Origin: Amoebophrya sp. A120
Taxonomy: Eukaryota; Protista; Dinoflagellata
DNA: 64,000 nt
Assembly: GCA_905178155.1 (NCBI GenBank)
Contig: CAJINV010000001.1
Span: 3,543,723-3,607,722, forward strand
Direction of reading: 5' to 3'
Positions 21,375 to 64,000 of the stretch are shown here, piece after piece. The translations under genes and the position numbers were made by a program. Every line of letters starts with the position of its first letter. Position 1 is the stretch's first letter. The notes under the pieces were generated by a model, which saw only the letters and a program-made list of their open reading frames with translations, searched no databases and was not told where the DNA came from.

Positions 21375-22243
21375 GTGAAGACTATGGGCTGGTTTGGTAG
21401 CATCTTCGACGTTCTTTCAGGCCCAGCTAATCTTGACGATGGGCGCGACCACCATCAGGAGATTACGCGCTCAGGGGCCCCCGAGTTGGCGCACTTGCAC
21501 CAACAGCAGCTTCCGGGTGCCCGGTCGCGCAACTATCTGGGCAGCCGACGACATCAGCTTTTTTCGCAGGTACAATTGCGCAGTGGCACCAACATCAAGA
21601 CCTCGTTCGGCACGCAGGACGATTACTACTGGTACTTTTTTCCGGATAAAGATCGACAGTCGCTGCTCGAGCGTGTTCCGTTGTTCAGTGAGATTGACAA
21701 TCTCGGTTTCGTGCCGCAGAAGCTGGACTCCATCGCGCGGCAACAGGGTATGTTCAGCGATGGCGGAGAGTTCACGACGTGCTTCCGCCGTCCCCTGGCG
21801 CAGCGCCGCCCCGGCAAGGGCCAGCCGATGGTATATCCAAGCTTTCGGCAAGTGCACGCGGCCGGGTTCGAAACGGCTACGGGGAGCAAGTTGGTGCGGT
21901 ACCTACTGCCGTCCACAACCTATGCAAAGCTTCCCGGTGATCGAGACCGCGCCATCGGGGCCCGATTTAACCAGGGCACGGCGGATTCGCCGGACTGGAT
22001 CTGGTGTCTGTGGAACAATATGCATTGCAAAAGTATCGTACTACGTATAAATTGCATTACAAATTTTCCCAAGAAAAAAACTCAATTTGTCATGCTATTT
22101 CAGGTAGAAATTTGGATTTATCATGCATATCTGCAATTAGTACGAGTGCAATACTTTTGCACAGGATAAGCAAGGTGTACAAGGACGATGTCAAGACCTC
22201 AGACTTCATTCGGAAAGACACACCTGGGCTATGGATACTGTAA
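21375..22243 (+). CDS. Hypothetical protein interrupted by a TIR-bounded intron
   Basis: The ORF from 21375 joins the 22004..22243 frame when 22019-22173 is removed (CLWNKVYKDDVKTSDFIRKDTPGLWIL*). Confidence 0.5.
22019..22168. mobile_element. Introner/MITE-like element 1 (150 nt)
   Basis: Left end tatgcattgcaaaagtatcgtactacgtataaattgca vs reverse complement of right end tatcctgtgcaaaagtattgcactcgtactaattgca. Flanks aacaa/agcaa (5 bp, 1 mismatch). Confidence 0.6.
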
Positions 22244-26059: not shown

Positions 26060-29000
26060 ATGGAAAGTCGGCGACGATTGCTTCGGTGCAGCAGCACATT
26101 TACCTCGGTCCACATGTGGCAGCTCTCGTGCAGCTTGCGGTTCGTGGGAAAAAAACTTCGCATCATCTGTACTCTTTCTCACCTCCTGCTCCTCTGTCTG
26201 CTGTTTCTTCTCCATGCGGGTGAAGCTGCAGAAGGTAAAAAACCAAGCGCCGAAATAAAATACGGAAATGTGAAGCAGGTGTACGTGGTGATGAGCAGCC
26301 ATTTTGACGAGGGGTACACCGATTTTGCCGTGCCGGTTCTGAACCGGTACTTTCAAGAGTTTTTTCCCGCTGCGGTGAAAACGGTGGAGTTGCTGAAAAA
26401 ACGACACCCGAAAACGGAACACACTCGCAACCCACCACGGTTGGTCTACACCTTGGACGGACCTTGGCTCGCTAGCATGTACCTGCAGGACTGTGCCTTT
26501 TTGCAGAAAAAGGGCGTCATTCCGGGTTTAAGTTGTCCGACGGAAGCAGAGCAGTACCAGTTTCGCCAAGCGTTAAAAGACGGCGACATAGCCCTCACGG
26601 CTAGTCCCTTCAACGCGCAAGTGGAACATGGGAGCGGTTTTCTGTTCAGGTACGGATTAGAGCTCGTGCGGGGCTTGGCCGGTGAAGTCGGAATATCGCG
26701 CAGTCGTGGGCGCGTCACTTTCAGTCAGCGCGACGTGCCCTTCACGACCGTTGCTGCGCTGCCGATACTGCGCGAGTACGGTGTTCGTTTGGTCAGCATC
26801 GGCGAGAATATTTTTTCTTCGGTCCCGAAAATTCCGGCGCCAATTTTTCTCTGGAGAGAAAGGGAGCAGACGAAGAAATTACACGGCGGAGTGAAAGCTG
26901 AACAGGCTGGCCAAAAAAAATCCGACACGGACGAGAATGAGCAGGGATTCGTGACTATTTGGAACCGAAATTATGGGAACTTCGAGCTTCTTCCCTCCGG
27001 CAAATGGGAGTTCACGAGCGAGCCCTTCCTTCTGGCTGACACCGCCTTGGTGATCGCCTTCAAGAACGATAATCAAGGCCCTTTCAATGCGACCGAAGTG
27101 GAGCAAATTTTCGGTGCGTTACAAATCTTCTTCCCGACCGCAGCACGCCTGGAAAACGGGATCGTTTCGACCAGTTACGACACTTTTGCGGAAAAGATTT
27201 GGCCGCGCCGGCACTCGCTTCCCGTAGTTTCGCGAGAAATCGGGGACATCTGGCTTTATGGCGTGCAAAGTGACTTCTTGAAGTCTGCCAGCACACGAAT
27301 CGTGATGCGCGAGGCTGAGAAGTTCATTTGCGGGAAGACCTCGCAAACAACTTCTACAGAAACACAACCAGGTCTAGAATTCGATGACGACGGGGGCGAG
27401 GCAAAGTCGAAACACGACACCACGTCCTGTTTTGACCATTTCTATTTCAGTAAAAGAGTCGCCGACCTGCAAAAAAACGACCCCGCGCTCTGGCATTTCA
27501 TGCGGCTCTTCATTGGCAGCACCGAGCACACCTGGGGGCTAGCAGGTAACGCCCGGGTTGAGGCAGCGAACAAAACAAACTTGTGGAGCAATGCGGGTTT
27601 TGATAACGACCGGAAAAGCAACAAGACCTCTGTCTTCAACGAAGTGGACGCCGCCTACCTAGAACAGCGAAACTTGCACTTGTTCTGGCCGTTGCTGCGC
27701 ATTTTGAAACGGGACGCGCATCCACTGGGGGATATCCTTCTAGAGCGCCTACGAGCTGAGCTTGGGCTCTCCCTGGACGAAGATCTTCACGTCGGAAAAG
27801 GGGAAAGAACAAAGAGAACCGAAGACGCCAGCCAGCTTGGCGGGCCGTCAGGGGAACCACGCGCGAAGATGCTGCCGCCCGCAAAGGACATCTTGTTACG
27901 CGCGGACCTCAACGCGCATTTTTGGTCAGAAGTCACAGTTTCCACCCAATCTGGTGAACTACTACCCGCAGCCTTCTCGGTGTTGATTCCAGAAAGCGAA
28001 TTGTTAGCATCCGGCCACCTCGTACTTCGAAAAAACTTCAAAAAGACTTCAAAGATGAGTTCAGTGCGAGTTCAATACGAACGCCGACAAAATCCTATAT
28101 TTATCATAAAGTCACTTGACCTGTTGCAAAATCGAAGAGAGCCAGCGTTTCTGTCGAAAGTCAGCTGACTTTGCGTGGAGTTTGCAATAACTCAAATGAC
28201 TTTTTGCGGAATTTGCACCAAAAAAAGTCAATTGACTTTGTGCTAATTTCAAGAAAAGCCAAATGCCTTTTCCTGAATTCGGCTCATTTCACAGACAGGC
28301 AGCAAAAGTTTGAAGAATGTGCCCAATTTTTTTGCAGAAGTCAGTTGACTTTTCTGGGAATTAGCATAAAGTCAATTGACTTTTTTTGATGCAAATTCCG
28401 CACAAAGTCATTTGACCTTGCCTGGAAGTTGTCAAAAGTCAGGCGACCTGTGCCCTTTTTGAAGTCAACGGATTTGGGCAAATTATTGAACTCGGATTAA
28501 ACTCGTAATGAGCTCGCTTTTGAACTCGTGCTCCGGTCTTTTTGAAAACTCTAAAAGTACGAGGTGGTCCCGTGCTAAGAATTGCTGGTCTGTTTTGATT
28601 ACCACGGCGCGTTGCGCGGGGTGTTTCAACATCGGGCAACATCGACTGGACGACAGACAAGTACAGAAGGAAGCAAACAATACGAGCCAAAAATCTGCAC
28701 GAATTGTCCACCCGAACTTGAGCCGGGGTACAAAATTGGGCAATATGTTTACCAAGCGTTGAGTGCGGCAAACATGACACAGTTTGTCGAGGAATTCGGG
28801 ACCACCGACGCTTTTGATTTCAGCAAGCCCGGGCTAAAGAAGCATCAAGCAAATTACACAGAGTACTTGCCGCGCGTGCGGGAAGTGATTGTTTCCATCG
28901 ACAGAGGCGGGAGGGGTAGCACGAGCAAGGAAGCAGAAGACGAAAGTGGTGAAGAGGAAAATTATGGGACATCGACCACAAGAAAAAAGAATTCCATCAC

Positions 29001-30375: not shown

Positions 30376-31677
30376 ATGTCTTTCTTCAATTGCCGGATTT
30401 GCACCGGTTCGCTTTGGGGAGAGCCGATCAAGCAGCCAGAGCCGAAACCGCGAGCGGATTTGAACAAGGCAGCAAAAAAGCCCGGAAAAGCAAGTATAGG
30501 TCGCATGGTGTGACAAAGATTTAGTTTGTTTTTGATGTAGAGTTGGGCATCGTTTGCACGCAGGCATGAATTGGATCGCCGGTTATGGAGTGTTGCACAC
30601 AAATGTTCCACATCATTCTTACAGAATTCACAAAACGGGATGCGAACGAGATACAGGCAGATTTGGCGAAATGGATCGACTTCTTGCATCCGCGCGCGCT
30701 CTATCAAATGCAAAAATGTCTGGGTCTGGAAGAATGCAAGATTTGTCATGCATATTTCTCATGACCCATGATGCCTGTAATGCATGACCTAGCATCGCAG
30801 ACTTGTAGAGGGCTTCCTGATGCACCTTCCGCATGAGAAATGCCCTGCCCGTGTAGCACAAACTGCACCCCTCTTGCTGGTCATGTAATACAAATTTTTT
30901 TAGATTCCAAAAACAGCATGACAAGTTGCAATCTTCCAGACCCAGACATTTTTGCATTTGATACGCTCGACTTTTTCCCAGACCAGGAGGCTGTGAAGAA
31001 GGTAGGACTGCTGTATAGCAAGTTCGCATGAAGATGAAGCCGTGATAAAAAAAAAAAATGAATATGATAGACTCTTTATCAAGAATAAATCTTGGTCTTC
31101 AAGAAATTGCTGCAACAACTTTCAGGTTTTATCCGAAATCCTGAAGAACATCGACAAGAAGGATGATCCGATTTTGGGGAGCGACGAAAAATGCGTGATG
31201 TGGCACGGCGACTCGACGAAGGTTAACAACGACGGCGAGGAAAGCCAAGCAGTTGTGCGGATAGTCAAACCCGGTATCATTTTTTTGCGACGAGAGAGAA
31301 TGAAATTGAATCAATGCAACTTTCATGCGATAGAGGCTTACTGGTTGTGGTTTGCATGCTGCGTAGCGCACACACTTTCGTCCTTATTTGATTTCCTAGA
31401 GCACCAGACCGGCAAGCAAGGTTGTATCAAAAATTCGACAGGTGACACGCTCGAGAGTGTGACTTTCGTGAACCGCGTGCTGCCCTTCATCTTCGCGGAC
31501 GACGAGTCGTTTGAGGAGCTGATGCAATTGCCCAAGGAGCCCTTTGCCATGTGCTGCGGCAACCAGCTCTGCGTGAACATGTCCCACATCTCGTTCCAGA
31601 AGCGCCGCAACTCCAAGGTGGCCGAAGAAGCCGGAGAGCAGGGCGAGGGAACATCGTTCACCGCACAGGCGAAGTAG
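30376..31677 (+). CDS. His-Me finger (HNH / zinc-binding loop)-like protein, 5 exons
   Basis: Exons 30376-30507, 30657-30701, 30969-31001, 31126-31273, 31442-31677 give ...GRMADLAKWIDFLHPRALDFFPDQEAVKKVLSEILKNID...CVMWHG...FVNRVL...CCGNQLCVNMSHI. Confidence 0.7.
30702..30963. mobile_element. Introner/MITE element 3 (262 nt)
   Basis: Perfect 32-bp TIR tatcaaatgcaaaaatgtctgggtctggaaga (30702-30733 / 30932-30963), imperfect out to ~50 bp. Direct repeat cgctc at 30697-30701 and 30964-30968. Confidence 0.9.
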
Positions 31678-36745: not shown

Positions 36746-37356
36746 CGAGCTAGTGAAGAAGAGTGAATGCATGATTATCTGTTTCCATTTCAATCTGTGC
36801 TGTCACGCATGCAGTTATGACTCAAAAAAAGAATAGTGGTTTCACAGAACTCGACGAATGCAGCCTTCTCCACCTGTGTTGTACGAAAAACTTGTACTTG
36901 AAGTCAAAGCGAATAAAAGGAGTGTATAGATAGTTTCAGTCAGTTGACTGACTACAATGTGTAAGATCTCGCAGAGAGTTTTCTTTACCATCGGAGGAAC
37001 CCCAACATTGTCCAGTAAGGACGAGCGCAGGAATCCATTATTGTTTCTACCAGGCCGCTTGTCATCAAGATCAAGCGATAGCGACTTGAATCGCTTTCTC
37101 GGTCTCCTCTAGTTTGCCGCGACAAATTGACCATGACACTAGCATCGGGATCGGTTTCGTGGATGACGTGCCACTAGTAAGATCTTCGCAGGCTCTGGCT
37201 CAGTAGAAACTATCGTCGGGGATCCGTAAGAGCATCCGGCATGGTCAATCCAGGGCTTGGTTCTCTAGAAGTCGGGTGAGCATGTATGGCCGATCTTCTG
37301 TGCAGCAGGCTTGCGCTTAGATACAGCTTGCCAGATCGAGCTATAAACATTTCTTC

Positions 37357-39747
37357 TCCACCGCAAGACAGTACGCGCGCGCTTCTGTTTCGACATACTT
37401 ACAGACGAGTACGTCGATGACGCGGGCGCCGAAGCAGCAGGCCAACCAGAACCGGGGGCGGAGCGCCGCTTCCCCCCGCTGCCCTACCGCCAGGTCACCC
37501 AAGGGCGCCTCCTTGGCATCCATTTTGACGAGGACGGGTGCTTCGCAGACCACTGCGACAAACTGGTGGACAAGAGCACAAAGCGCCTCGCACTCATAAA
37601 AAGGAGGTACCGGCACAAAGCCGACACCGTGACACTGCGCGCACTATACCTCGGGCTTGTGGGTTCCCTCGTTCGGTTCACGCTCTCGGTGTTGGGGCCC
37701 TACCTCCCCGAGCAGGCGATGAAGCGGCTTGACACGCGCATCCTACATAAGGGCGCGCGACTCATCACGGGGGCCCTACAACACACCCGGATAGAGGTCC
37801 TCCTCGCTTCCGCGTGCCTGTTCAACGCGCACACCCTGGCAACCATCGAGGTCGCGCTCTGGTTCGATAGGTTCGCGCGCGAAGGCCAAGCCCTCCCGGC
37901 CACCACGGCATTACAAAGTGGCATCGCAGCAGAAGCAGGCGCGCCTGGGGCGCGTGGGTCCGCGCCGTGGCGGTGCAACACCCTGCCATCCCGCACAGAC
38001 GTTGTCGAGGCGCTCAGCCGCTTCCCCAGCCTGCCACAAACACTAGGTGGCAACTTCGTCCTGCGGTATGTGATCCACACCGGCACCCGTGCAACCCGGG
38101 TGGAAGGGCGCCCCCTGTGGGAATACAACGCTATCGACTTACGCGAAACCAAGCGCGCCACCTGGGCCGGGAGACGCGCGGGTGACCAAGCCCACCGGGT
38201 TTTGGAGGCCATCGGCGTGAGCAACACCCACCGAGAATCCTACAGCCCGCGACCTCGCCTCTCCCGCGAGATCAGGTGGGAAATCAACCCGGGCGAGAGC
38301 TACCCGACAAGGGATGCAAACACAGCGCCTGCGAACGAGCGATGGGCGGCGCCGTTCGATGAGGACGCGACCCAACCGGACGCGGCCTGGCAGAACGACC
38401 GCTTCCGCCAAGAGCTTGAGCAGGGGGCGGCTGTGTCCTTCTGTGATGGCTCCCTCGTGGGGGCGGTCATAGATGGGGACCGCCGCAGGCACGGCCGCAT
38501 CCTCGGGGGCTCGGTTCTATTCGCGCAAAACGCTCTACAGGCTGTGGAAATACATCTGTATGGCATCGGGCCATCCGCGTATCCCGGGGAAACAGGGGGA
38601 GCCCAGGTAGGGGCACAGCAGTTGGCGGGCGTCCACGCCACCCGTGCGAGGCTGGTGGGTGACTGCAGGGGGTGGATGACCGCGGCGGCGAGTGGAAACC
38701 GGCTCGAACCCCAACTGTGCACGGTCCTCACCGCCCTGGACCGCATCCCCGCAGCCGAAGCACTCGTCACCCACGTATACGCCCATACGGGCGTCGCGGG
38801 CAACGAATTCATAGATACGTTGTTGGGACTCGTGGCCCCGGCCGCCCGGCGAGTGGACATGCGGGAACTCCCGTCCCTCCCCGTCCCCCACGCAGCGGTG
38901 AAGCAGCTCCTCCTGCGGGAAATAGAAGCACAAGAAGAGGTAGGGATCCTGTCCCTGGGGCTAACCAGAAGCATCAGTGGGCGAGACTGGGCGGCCAGAC
39001 AATGGTCGCGCGACTTCGTCTGGGGCGTCACCAAATATCTCCGTGGCGCGCGGCTGGTTCAACGCCTCTGGCTGTCCACGGTCAGTGGAAGTCAGAGTAG
39101 ATCCTTCGGCAACGAGTTGCACTGCGACTACTGCGGGACCCCGTTGACACCGGGCCACATACTCGAAGAATGCGAGGCGCTGGAAAGCTGGAGACAGTAC
39201 GTCCGGGACACCGGCCCTACACATCAACCAACAGGAATCGGCGACCGGATCACGCAGATGGGGAGACTGTGCGCAGCGGTGCTCCCCCTCACATCAGAGC
39301 GCGCATGGCCCCACGGCTGGCAAGAGCGCCCTGACTACAGATCCATGACCGAACTGGGCACCCACAATGCCCACGAATAAACGGCCCGCTAGGGCGTGCA
39401 ACGCCGCGTCCGCGGCGCGAGCGCTTATGTTCCGTACAATGAAACCAACCTACACTAACGGCGCGCGAGGGGGCTCAGTGGTGTTCCGCACACACGTGGT
39501 TGGCACTGAGTCTGAGCCGTGAGACCGTGGGAAGGTAAACGGGACACCGGGGCACACCCCCGCCCCACCGGAGAGATCTTGTGAGAGACTGAGAGTGTGG
39601 AACCGCACTACAGCGGCGACAAATCCAAAGATCCCGCGAGATCCCACATCACAGCACCACCGCAAGATCTTGCAACCTTCCGCTCTCGTACATTCGTTGT
39701 GGTCACCTCGGGCACAAACCCCAGTAGGGCTTCGATAATAATAATAA
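37357..39747 (+). mobile_element. 5'-truncated non-LTR retrotransposon (RNase H-containing, I/Ingi-like)
   Basis: Perfect 15-bp TSD tataaacatttcttc (37342-37356, 39748-39762) and a (TAA)4 tail at 39736-39747. Confidence 0.9.
37482..39380 (+). CDS. LINE ORF2 remnant: RT C-terminus/thumb, RNase H, CCHC zinc knuckle
   Basis: RLLGIHFDEDGCFADHCDKLVDKSTKRL (RT domain 7, upstream of the listed GTG). RNase H motifs FCDGS, GE, GDC, HVYAHTGVAGNEFID. Knuckle CDYCGTPLTPGHILEEC. Confidence 0.85.
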   Translation, partial: PYRQVTQGRLLGIHFDEDGCFADHCDKLVDKSTKRLALIKRRYRHKADTVTLRALYLGLVGSLVRFTLSVLGPYLPEQAMKRLDTRILHKGARLITGALQHTRIEVLLASACLFNAHTLATIEVALWFDRFAREGQALPATTALQSGIAAEAGAPGARGSAPWRCNTLPSRTDVVEALSRFPSLPQTLGGNFVLRYVIHTGTRATRVEGRPLWEYNAIDLRETKRATWAGRRAGDQAHRVLEAIGVSNTHRESYSPRPRLSREIRWEINPGESYPTRDANTAPANERWAAPFDEDATQPDAAWQNDRFRQELEQGAAVSFCDGSLVGAVIDGDRRRHGRILGGSVLFAQNALQAVEIHLYGIGPSAYPGETGGAQVGAQQLAGVHATRARLVGDCRGWMTAAASGNRLEPQLCTVLTALDRIPAAEALVTHVYAHTGVAGNEFIDTLLGLVAPAARRVDMRELPSLPVPHAAVKQLLLREIEAQEEVGILSLGLTRSISGRDWAARQWSRDFVWGVTKYLRGARLVQRLWLSTVSGSQSRSFGNELHCDYCGTPLTPGHILEECEALESWRQYVRDTGPTHQPTGIGDRITQMGRLCAAVLPLTSERAWPHGWQERPDYRSMTELGTHNAHE

Positions 39748-54398: not shown

Positions 54399-57300
54399 AT
54401 GGAGGACGGCGGCGCCGCGCCCCCGGAGGCCCCGCAGCCGGGCGTGGTGGTGGCTGAGCCAACTGGGCCGTCCACCGCGAGCAACGACCCGGTCGCGCCA
54501 GCTGCAACAACGAGCAACGACCCTGCAGGGTCTGGTGATGACCCGATGGCGATGGAGGTCGAGCAGGACGACGCAGGTATGCAGCAGGACCCAAGTGCGG
54601 TCTTCAGCGCCCTGGATTCGCTCGGGCCACCACAGGGTTCTCCGCCGCAGGGGTCACCGAAACTCGACGCAGCCTTCGAAGCGATGGGGATGACCATGGG
54701 CATGCCGGTAAAAAGATGACACGCACAAATGATGTTGCAGCCGCTCTGTATGTATTGTACATTGTTATCTTTCATATTTCATTGCATGGAGTCATCAACA
54801 TTCGCATCGCGGCTGATCATGTGAAATCCGTCTGTCATGCGCCACCACTCTGTTGTATAACTACAATCGCACATCTTACAGGTCCAACAAGACTACGCCC
54901 GGCGCGCCATGCACCCGATGAAGGTTTCCTTTTACGAGTTGATAATTCGCCAGCTCGCGGACGATGAATTTCTGGACGAGGCGTTGTCGCTGAAAAATCG
55001 TTCCGGGTTGAAAGAGGCCGGCCACGTGGAATCGAACTGGCTTTTCCGTCTGTACGAGGAGAATTTTGGCAAGCACTTCAGCGACCAAAACAAGTGGACC
55101 GACATGGGGCTCACACCCATGCCTAAGCTGGAAAGCGGGGAGAGGTGTCTGGACGTAGAAGAGCCGAGGTTTGACCTAGACGGCTTGGACAAAATAACCT
55201 ACACCGACAGTTACAAAAACGTCATCGCTGACGACGATCCGGAAAGTATAGCAAAAGGCGAGGGGAAGGGGCAAAGGGACGGCAAAGGTAGAGGAGTTTT
55301 TGTTCATTAGCGAAGGAGTTTTATGAGATTCATCTTGGAATGTGTCGACGGAGTGCGGAAACTAGAATTTTGATGAGAACAGACACAAAATAAAACCTCC
55401 AGATCGGGACGGAAAGGACGCCAAGGATCATCAACAAGAGCCCCCCGTTGCCAAGGCGCGACCCCTTCACAGGAAGAAAGCAAATATCTTCAATAAAGTC
55501 CATTACAACACGGCGCACAAACAGATGGTGCGAGCAGTGGCTTTTAGTCCGGACGGCAGGTGCAACTTATGTGGCGCTTTTTGCGAGTCACAAATGACTT
55601 CGAAATTGTTTGTACTTACGGCGAATGTAACCGCGATTCAATCATTTGAACGATCGATCCACGATGTGCGAGCAGCAGTCCAATGTACAACTTCCGTCAA
55701 AACAGGTTCGCAGCGAGCGGAAGCCACGATACCACGGTGAAAGTGCTGGACGTCAACAAAATGTTTCACTACGGGTCGCAAAACGCGGGCGAGAGGCGTG
55801 ACCAGGGGTCCGATGTACGACCCGTGATGCGCACCCTATACGACCACCAGGGCCCGTATGGGAGTGTCAGGATCGAAATCGACAAAATCGAAAAACTTGT
55901 GATGCAGAAAATGTAGGACACTGAAGGCCTGTATTGGGGAGCTGGCAAATGAGACAGATTGTAAGCCTGTTTAGGGTAAGACGCTGTGCTGTCAGAGTAG
56001 CATGACAGGAGCAGTCTTCTTTGCCGTAACAGCATGACAGACTGGATTTTGGTGCTCTCGAAATTTGTCATGCGCCACTTGGAAACTGAGGCTCCAACTG
56101 GTATCTTTTTATGCATCACAAATCATTTCGATTTTGTCAATTTCGATTCTGATGCTTCCATAGCCCGGTGAACTCCCTCTGTTTCCACCCACATCTCGCC
56201 TACCTCTTCACCGCAAGTGCCGACAAGACCGTGAAGGTCTTCGATCTAACTCGCCCCCAGACGCAATTGAAGTCCCTATCCAGCATCCCCGATAGCAGTA
56301 TGGTCCAGACCATGGCAGTGCACCCCAGTGGCGACTACCTCTACGTCGGCACCGCCCACCCGACAATCCGGCTGTACGATCTCACAAGGCTGGAGTGCTT
56401 CACAGGCCCAAATCCCAACGACGTACTGCTTCATTCGTGTTGCGCTGATCTATTTTCATTTTTGGCGACGATTGTTGGGATGTTATGTAGACATTGGCAG
56501 TTTTGTTCCATATGATAAATGTATCATCATAAAATATCAGTACCACACCGGTATGATAAACGACCTGGCTGTGACCAGCGATGGCAAGGTTCTGGCATCA
56601 GCGAGCTCGGACGGTGAAGTGAAGTTGTGGGACGTTGTCGCCAACCGAGTAGTGAATAGCATGAGCAAGGCACATCACGGCGCCAGCGTCTGTAGCGTGA
56701 AATGGAGCAGAAACCTGAGGTAGAAACGCGGTTCAGTAGTCTTTTTGATCTGCCCCCCGCTAAGCATTGGGATGCTGTATTGCTAAGTTTGTTTTCGAGC
56801 TTTCCCTTTCTCATTTTTCACTCATCCACAACCACATAAAACAGGTATTTCCTTACCGCGGGTTGTGACGGTAAAGCAAAACTTTGGGATGCCCGAAAGG
56901 GAGGCAACGAGCCGGTCCACAATATGAATGTTTGCGCCGCAAGGAATCTCGAGTACGCGCGAGCAGCCTTCATCGGCCAGGAGCGTTTCATCGCTGTGGC
57001 GTCGTCTGGGAACGACCTTTGCATTCTCGACGCGCAAACTGGAGAATACCTGCAAGGAGGTATTTAAACTGTGACTCTTTTTCTTCTTGCGATGTGCTGT
57101 TACTCATTTTGTCAAGAAAGACACGAATAGCTGCATAGGAAAACAAGGGCAACTACGAGTCACCATACCAACATAAAGTTTGGCGTGTTCGTTGCTCTGA
57201 TCCCTGTTCCCCAACGTTAAATCAAAATTTCTCATCCCTTGAAAACAGCGGTAGCCCGTGGCGGTTACCACCACCACACCTCCCACCACCAGCACAGCAA

Positions 57301-63165: not shown

Positions 63166-63344
63166 GTATATTTATTAGATGAAGTCTTGGTTGAGTCACC
63201 GTGCAAACGCAATAACAAGTGTCTTTTTCAGTACTGCTGGCGCTCTCAGCTGTTACTCTACGCGCACAAGAGATTGCATACAAGTCGGCAGGTTATGTCG
63301 CCACAGTGTGTCGATCAACGAGAATCAGGAAAGCGAGGGCCCGC

Positions 63345-64000
63345 GAAACCGAGAAAGCCGAAAGGCCGAGAAAGAGCCGAAAGGCCGAGAAAGAGCCGAA
63401 AGGCCGAGAATGAGCCGGAAGACCGAGAAAGAGCCGAAGGGCCGAGAAGGGGCCGAAAGGCCGGGGAAGGGCCGAAAGGCTGAGAAAGCCGAGAAAGAGC
63501 CGAAAGGCCGGGAAAGAGCCGAAAGGTCGAGAAATGCATGGCCGAAAGGCCGGAAAAGAGCCGAAAGGCCGGAAAAGAGCCAAAAGGCCGGAAAAAAGCC
63601 GAAAGGCCGGAGAAGAGCCGAAAGGCCGGGAAAGAGCCGAAAGGCCGGAAAAGAGCCGAAAGGCCGCAAAAGAGCCGAAAGGCCGGAAAAGAGTCGAATG
63701 GCCGGAAAAGAGTCGAAAGGCCGGAAAAGAGGCGGGAAGGCCGAGAAAGCCGAAAGGCCGAGAAAGTAAGCCGAAAGGCCGAGAACGCCGGGAAAGAACC
63801 GAAAGGCCGGAAAAGAGCCGAAAGGCCGGAAAAGAGCCGAAAGGCCGAAAAAGAGCCGGGAAGGCCGGGAAAGCCGAAAGGCCGAGAAAGTAAGCCGGAA
63901 GGCCGAGAACGCCGAAAGGCCGAGAAAGCCGAAAGGCCGAGAAAGCCGAAAGGCCGAGAAAGAGCCGAAAGGCCGGAAAAGAGCCGAAAGGCCGGAAAAG
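63345..64000. repeat. Purine-rich minisatellite, ~19-nt unit gccgaaaggccggaaaaga, runs off the window
   Basis: More than 30 degenerate units; T is rare on the + strand. Confidence 0.9.

Follow-up and report, generated by a model that had tools for sequence, protein, structure and literature searches.

A non-canonical intron with terminal inverted repeats in Amoebophrya sp. A120 and evidence suggesting a fixed register for its removal from RNA

A 262-nt element with terminal inverted repeats (positions 30702–30963) interrupts a protein-coding gene in the 64,000-nt stretch of Amoebophrya sp. A120 DNA analyzed here (hereafter the window), and it lies in a true non-canonical intron. The element is precisely removed from RNA together with one copy of a 5-bp duplication, the host protein is restored, and the element belongs to a family whose members are found in host genes in both orientations. 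By itself, it adds nothing, as it is one among the ∼30,000 introners described from A120, in which introns without GT-AG borders were already known. What is new is that our results suggest a fixed register of removal and a conservation of the element ends that depends on the direction of transcription. We lean, if only slightly, toward the view that this A120 introner is removed at a fixed register by a relaxed, U1-less spliceosome that would read the ends of the element and measure the 3' cut.

The element starts with TAT and ends with ATA, and its arms (left, 30702–30733, forward strand; right, 30932–30963, reverse strand) form the perfect 32-bp inverted repeat that an earlier note on this DNA had described, extending to 38 nt at 97%. 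Arms like these have a chance expectation of ∼1e-11 in the window. The sequence equally bears out three other statements of that note: CGCTC is duplicated on both flanks (left copy, 30697–30701; right copy, 30964–30968), 267 nt are removed, and the element, if retained, brings in an in-frame TGA, with a stop after 85 residues. No frame of the element is free of stops on either strand. The span of 30697–30968 given in the note includes both duplications and measures 272 nt, whereas the piece removed measures 267 nt. Six 267-nt removals are equivalent (CG..TA, GC..AC, CT..CG, TC..GC, CT..CT, and TA..TC); as had been claimed, GT and AG occur at none of them, but GC, also said to be absent, is present in the second slide (30698–30964, GC..AC). 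The termini are thus not those of a U2-type GT/GC-AG intron. Folding prediction gives a stem that joins the two ends of the element RNA (z = −13.5; other strand, −11.1).

The host gene is read from the forward strand and consists of coding exon 1 (30376–30493), exon 2 (30625–30701; 77 nt if the left duplication is counted in full, or 76 nt under the register inferred below), exon 3 (30969–31001; 33 nt, or 34 nt in that register), exon 4 (31126–31273), and a last coding exon (31442–31677). Three canonical GT-AG introns at 30494–30624 (131 nt), 31002–31125 (124 nt), and 31274–31441 (168 nt) are joined in RNA contigs, and the 267-nt skip is found as a joint from 30696 to 30964 in contigs of RNA runs X3 and X4, which represent one sample. 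The RNA joint from 30493 to 30625 replaces the upstream intron of the earlier note (30508–30656), and the upstream exon, given there as 45 nt, is actually the 77-nt exon 2; its 33-nt downstream exon agrees with both RNA and coding sequence. RNA support for this copy consists of assembled contigs; in a raw-read run (X13), two reads match, both on the arms, and the host gene is uncovered. The spliced frame from 30376 to 31677 is identical to P0001, a 203-amino acid protein of Amoebophrya sp. A120. The A25 orthologue of P0001 is 72% identical, and the motif HPRA-x-[DE]FFPD across the insertion site is present in this orthologue and in one metagenome protein, a fourth protein being too short to reach it. 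The whole of P0001 has no Pfam match; language-model features, at a high score, provide as a lead only that it may be His-Me finger-like, of a family also present in Apicomplexa.

Searching with the exact 22-base arm pattern yielded at least 129 loci in one metagenome assembly, 80 of them with flanks, and the family figures given here rest on these loci; the one host protein tested from them was 98% identical to an A120 protein. BLAST in the 129 loci returned 416 matches to the element, 130 of at least 200 nt. When copies were paired by their arms alone (n = 117), the 5-bp duplication was perfect in 99, matched at 4 of 5 bases in 14, and at fewer in 4. A wider scan recovered 419 TA..TA elements, with one false call in 146 kb of shuffled sequence; of 219 cases in which strand calls could be compared within a locus, 218 agreed, and 352 elements could be oriented. 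Relative to their host genes, 32 elements lay in the same orientation and 39 were flipped. Removal of the element and one duplication restored the frame at 86 of 100 callable junctions (386 examined). A GT..AG register was possible in 13 of 296 copies in the sense direction and in 11 of 296 in the antisense direction, in 95 of the 296, GT and AG were both absent from every slide, and no register showed a dinucleotide preference beyond base composition. Judged from these copies, absence of GT..AG is the norm for the family. The description of 30702–30963 as the cleanest case therefore holds for its arms (at least 30 perfect bp in 5 of 352 copies; median perfect arm, 4 bp) but not for its lack of GT and AG, which is ordinary in this family. 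The clean arms likewise speak for a young insertion, as the note had proposed, but the closest full-length sister found, which is in another assembly, is 93.9% identical, so that youth is plausible rather than demonstrated; within the family, differences between arms often reflect subfamily arm types and not age.

The family has the features of a MITE, namely short length, terminal inverted repeats, a target-site duplication (TSD) of constant length, no coding capacity, and many copies. In DNA run X1, 5743 contigs match a 2.3-kb stretch, with depth concentrated on the arms. No transposase was detected in 92 ORFs scanned (83 of 331 long ORFs and 9 within long elements), and no autonomous partner sharing the ends was detected among 10 long candidates and these 92 ORFs, flanks being available for 80 of the 129 loci. 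A long candidate of 6.2 kb (locus L028) appears to be two elements paired by chance. In locus L044 (476–2934), a family element reaches 2459 nt through a nested insert and still has a perfect duplication; the 415-amino acid ORF of the insert has no Pfam match. The arm sequence has no match in viral contigs. Our best lead to a mobilizing enzyme, by analogy, may be A120 family 38 of Gozashti et al. 2025 (PMC12130899, Dataset S2, row 580; 38 of 58 A120 rows), a Ginger family with a 5-bp TSD and TA/TA termini. The two, likened by description, have in common TA..TA termini, a 5-bp TSD, terminal inverted repeats, and the generation of introns, but family 38 measures ∼810 bp and has homology to an integrase-like ORF, whereas the element here is 262 nt and has no ORF. 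IS3EU/GingerRoot elements also have TA..TA termini but a usual TSD of 6 bp rather than 5 bp, and the 4–5-bp TSD of Ginger2 is in line with that of our element (PMC10045372); the family differs from IS3EU and Ginger2 in that no transposase is linked to it here.

In A120, Farhat et al. 2021 (PMC7789003) described 29,850 repeated introns with no clear splice signature, the border position being left undefined in the available part of that paper, and introners with inverted repeats of TAT, seven variable bases, and at least three A, flanked by direct repeats of 3–5 nt. The element at 30702–30963 fits every introner feature that we tested: it shares the organism (by protein identity), the TAT-N7-AAA pattern (in the left arm), a 5-nt repeat, a length of ∼260 nt, non-canonical borders, repetition, and a position inside coding sequence. 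It differs in its 32-bp arm, the reported motifs being 8–20 nt, and the fixed register and polar end conservation inferred here contrast with the undefined border of that account. The literature searched contained no paper that defines the register of A120 introners or suggests a branch point for them, and the logos in Fig. 3 and Figs. S19–S25 of Farhat et al. may show part of what follows.

We define the register k as the number of left-duplication bases retained in RNA. The copy at 30702–30963, whose RNA junction is ambiguous over 5 nt, is itself uninformative for k. Six junctions in other copies are informative, and all six are compatible with one register; five of them come from another assembly, where proteins 96–98% identical stand in for mRNA. 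The sixth belongs to a second TAT..ATA introner of the window (22019–22168, 150 nt), of which RNA skips 155 nt: its duplication is mismatched at base 2, and RNA retains the left base, giving k ≥ 2. In locus L039, the duplications of two elements differ at base 5, and agreement with the A120 protein there requires the right base (k ≤ 4). Comparison of locus L074 with the 96%-identical protein P0007 showed the left base at position 3 and the right base at position 5, giving k = 3 or 4; the predictions for this locus (k ≥ 3 and k ≤ 4) had been written before the result. In locus L059, the host protein has three internal repeats in which a residue needing left base 4 is present (k ≥ 4), and locus L078, with 1 of 14 junctions matched to the database protein P0006, gives a weak hint toward k = 4. 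In L074, the junction peptides of all 10 elements match a database protein, as do those of 10 of the 15 elements in L039. Further, in Table S4 of PMC7789003, whose junctions were placed by an aligner, the predominant non-canonical motifs begin with N-T in 9 of 9 cases for A120, as k = 4 requires, and with TT in 9 of 9 cases for A25. For 42 mismatches, the outcome of a likelihood test varied with the model: empirical rates favored k = 4–5 by 2–4 log units, and an AT-biased model showed no preference. Overall, in those sister copies that are informative, the cut falls after duplication base 3 or 4, with k = 4 the likely register and k = 3 the runner-up; the choice of 4 over 3 comes from the single paralog-repeat case of L059, the weak hint of L078, and the junctions of Table S4. 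With k = 4, the intron of the present gene would run from 30701 to 30967 (267 nt, CT..CT; runner-up, 30700–30966), and the GC..AC slide would be excluded.

The two ends of the family members are conserved differently when read in the direction of transcription. End position 3 deviates in 12 of 352 5' arms compared with 1 of 352 3' arms (Fisher p = 0.003; post hoc, with one or two pairs doubtful). The single 3' deviation occurs in a symmetric element; thus, the 3' A never varies alone, whereas its 5' mirror does so in 11 of 352. End position 1, for which a difference was predicted after position 3 had been seen, deviates in 0 of 290 elements at the 5' end and in 5 of 290 at the 3' end (p = 0.06), and four of these five deviations could also be U·G wobbles. 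Because a transposase sees both ends alike, differences that depend on direction must come from the RNA level or from transcription itself. This polar conservation, observed in sequence, is consistent with a donor U that does not vary and with a branch-like A, for which the candidate at our site is the first A of the terminal ATA (30961, position −7). All seven canonical donors confirmed in the window begin with GTA, and branch points known from Yarrowia, Trichomonas, and Giardia lie 6–8 nt before the end of the intron (converted from the branch point-to-AG spacing in PMC2483917). Wobble counts over the terminal 20 bp (G·U, 204; A·C, 286; per element, 95 versus 132) and at 21–30 bp (86 versus 82) show no selection for RNA pairing of the ends, so that a bridging role of the stem is argued from the folding prediction.

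We propose the following mechanism. The element would be a non-autonomous DNA transposon, probably inserted by a transposase related to integrases (Ginger/IS3EU-like) and supplied in trans, that duplicates 5 bases upon insertion. From RNA, the element and 5 bases would be removed by cuts 1 base before TAT and 4 bases after ATA. The first two bases of the element, T1 and A2, may supply the +2 U and the +3 A of a donor whose +1 is relaxed; the branch point may be the first A of the terminal ATA, the 3' cut being measured 7 nt on; and the sub-terminal stem may bridge the ends in place of U1. Since the ends are inverted repeats, the splicing signals would be present in either landing orientation. 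In the available part of the A120 report, nearly all spliceosome proteins and U2, U4, U5, and U6 are listed, and U1 was not found (PMC7789003). The polarity, an indirect observation, points to a relaxed spliceosome that reads the ends of the element; a lariat with a branch adenosine and dependence on U2, U5, and U6 would then be expected. In its general form, which we hold tentatively and with a little less confidence than the reading for this introner, the tens of thousands of A120 introners would share one positional code, with a 5' border N|UAU and a 3' border AUA-NNNN|, in which a U1-less spliceosome would find its +2 U, its +3 A, and, at −7, its branch A. Under such a code, G+1 and the 3' AG would be ignored, and an insertion in either orientation would be a working intron at birth.

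The same element could be removed at a similar register without the spliceosome, by an endonuclease and ligase or a separate machinery measuring its cuts from the terminal stem. This explanation, which we regard as rather unlikely although it deserves weight, draws on the strong end-to-end stem predicted for both strands, on the lack of dinucleotide preference in any register and the independence from orientation, and on the U1 that was not found in A120 (available part of PMC7789003). A route of this kind has been proposed for the nonconventional introns of euglenids, in which the cuts keep a set distance from a paired motif; these introns reportedly yield circular products and share with our element non-GT-AG borders, paired ends, and TSD-like repeats (PMC12501133, PMC11282704); they differ in their CAG/CTG (CDG..CHG) motif and exon-start purine preference, the ends here being TAT..ATA. 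Against it, the polar conservation matches a donor +2 U and a branch-like A, G·U is not favored over A·C in the stem, the median perfect arm is short, and the more weakly stemmed element at 22019–22168 is spliced as well. Fritillaria offers another comparison: its non-canonical introns are MITE-derived, with terminal inverted repeats and a TSD as here, and are removed by an adapted spliceosome, but they retain preferred dinucleotides (AG-AC, AG-AT), whereas +1, −2, and −1 appear free in our family (PMC11282704). PMC11453091 was also used. A relaxed spliceosome might instead cut at variable places within the duplications, with no single register and the wobble hidden by the duplication. The Fig. 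3 legend of Farhat et al. gives splice sites as variable relative to the hairpin (PMC7789003), and of the mismatches at duplication positions 1 and 5, 20 of 23 occupy the third base of a codon, compared with 6 of 19 of those at positions 2–4 (p = 0.0004, post hoc), as though positions 1 and 5 were at times translated from both copies. At position 5, though not at position 1, a constraint on the +1 base could account for this pattern. The agreement of the six informative junctions on one register and the frequent non-synonymous mismatches at positions 2–4 (12 of 19) make variable cutting improbable.

Two further accounts would deny the intron altogether. A hairpin with direct repeats is a classic substrate for template switching, and the RNA evidence is cDNA-based, so the joined form might be a reverse-transcriptase product or a DNA-level excision. 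We consider this very improbable: a single 1333-nt RNA contig traverses all four junctions unbroken, and the joined form is absent from DNA runs X1 and X7, in which contigs span both borders, although contigs drop rare variants. Moreover, retention of the element would truncate a conserved protein at 85 residues, and across the family, element length plus 5 is spread evenly over the three frames (116/102/134), so that unremoved copies would break most host genes. The region could also be skipped within one canonical intron at 30508–30986, which keeps the reading frame open and which the earlier note had raised as the alternative to be checked by RNA and orthologues. Both checks came out in favor of the non-GT-AG intron: the joint from 30507 to 30987 is absent among six RNA joints, and because the peptide that this intron would delete is conserved in the A25 orthologue and the metagenome homologue, we reject such skipping as scarcely tenable.

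A fixed register, together with an invariant +2 U and a candidate for the branch A, makes the question of how introners are cut directly testable. Should the spliceosomal reading hold, it would illustrate how G+1 and the 3' AG can be dispensed with by a spliceosome, suggest why a transposon family could spread cheaply through coding exons, and settle exon borders across the A120 annotation. The database protein P0006, compared with L078 (558–1019), begins with translated introner sequence, likely an annotation error from an unrecognized non-canonical intron.

Several other features of the window and the family were observed. In the introner at 22019–22168, the base-2 mismatch creates an AG just after the element. 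A third TAT..ATA introner (55857–56162, 306 nt, 5-bp duplication) leaves the frame open after removal and has sisters in four loci that are 75–88% identical. An 8-base sub-terminal motif and its complement recur at 30744, 30916, 22088, and 56000–56066, in three otherwise different elements, and might be a transposase binding site. Copies with ∼90–98% similarity to the element at 30702–30963 were also present in a differently labeled RNA run and an estuary metagenome (X9 and X10), in which only repeated elements are covered. A different element, with TTAGC..GCTAA ends, a 6-bp duplication, and a long internal inverted repeat, occupies 28004–28578; a 581-nt removal gives a 1027-codon open frame, and an RNA contig begins exactly at 28579, a weak hint of splicing, with no corresponding joint among those listed. 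A 677-amino acid ORF at 37347–39380, in a GC-rich stretch, has no Pfam match and looks, by eye, like the 3' part of a non-LTR retroelement; a short AAT run follows near 39740. Finally, positions 63319–64000 hold a tandem array of ∼19-nt purine-rich units.
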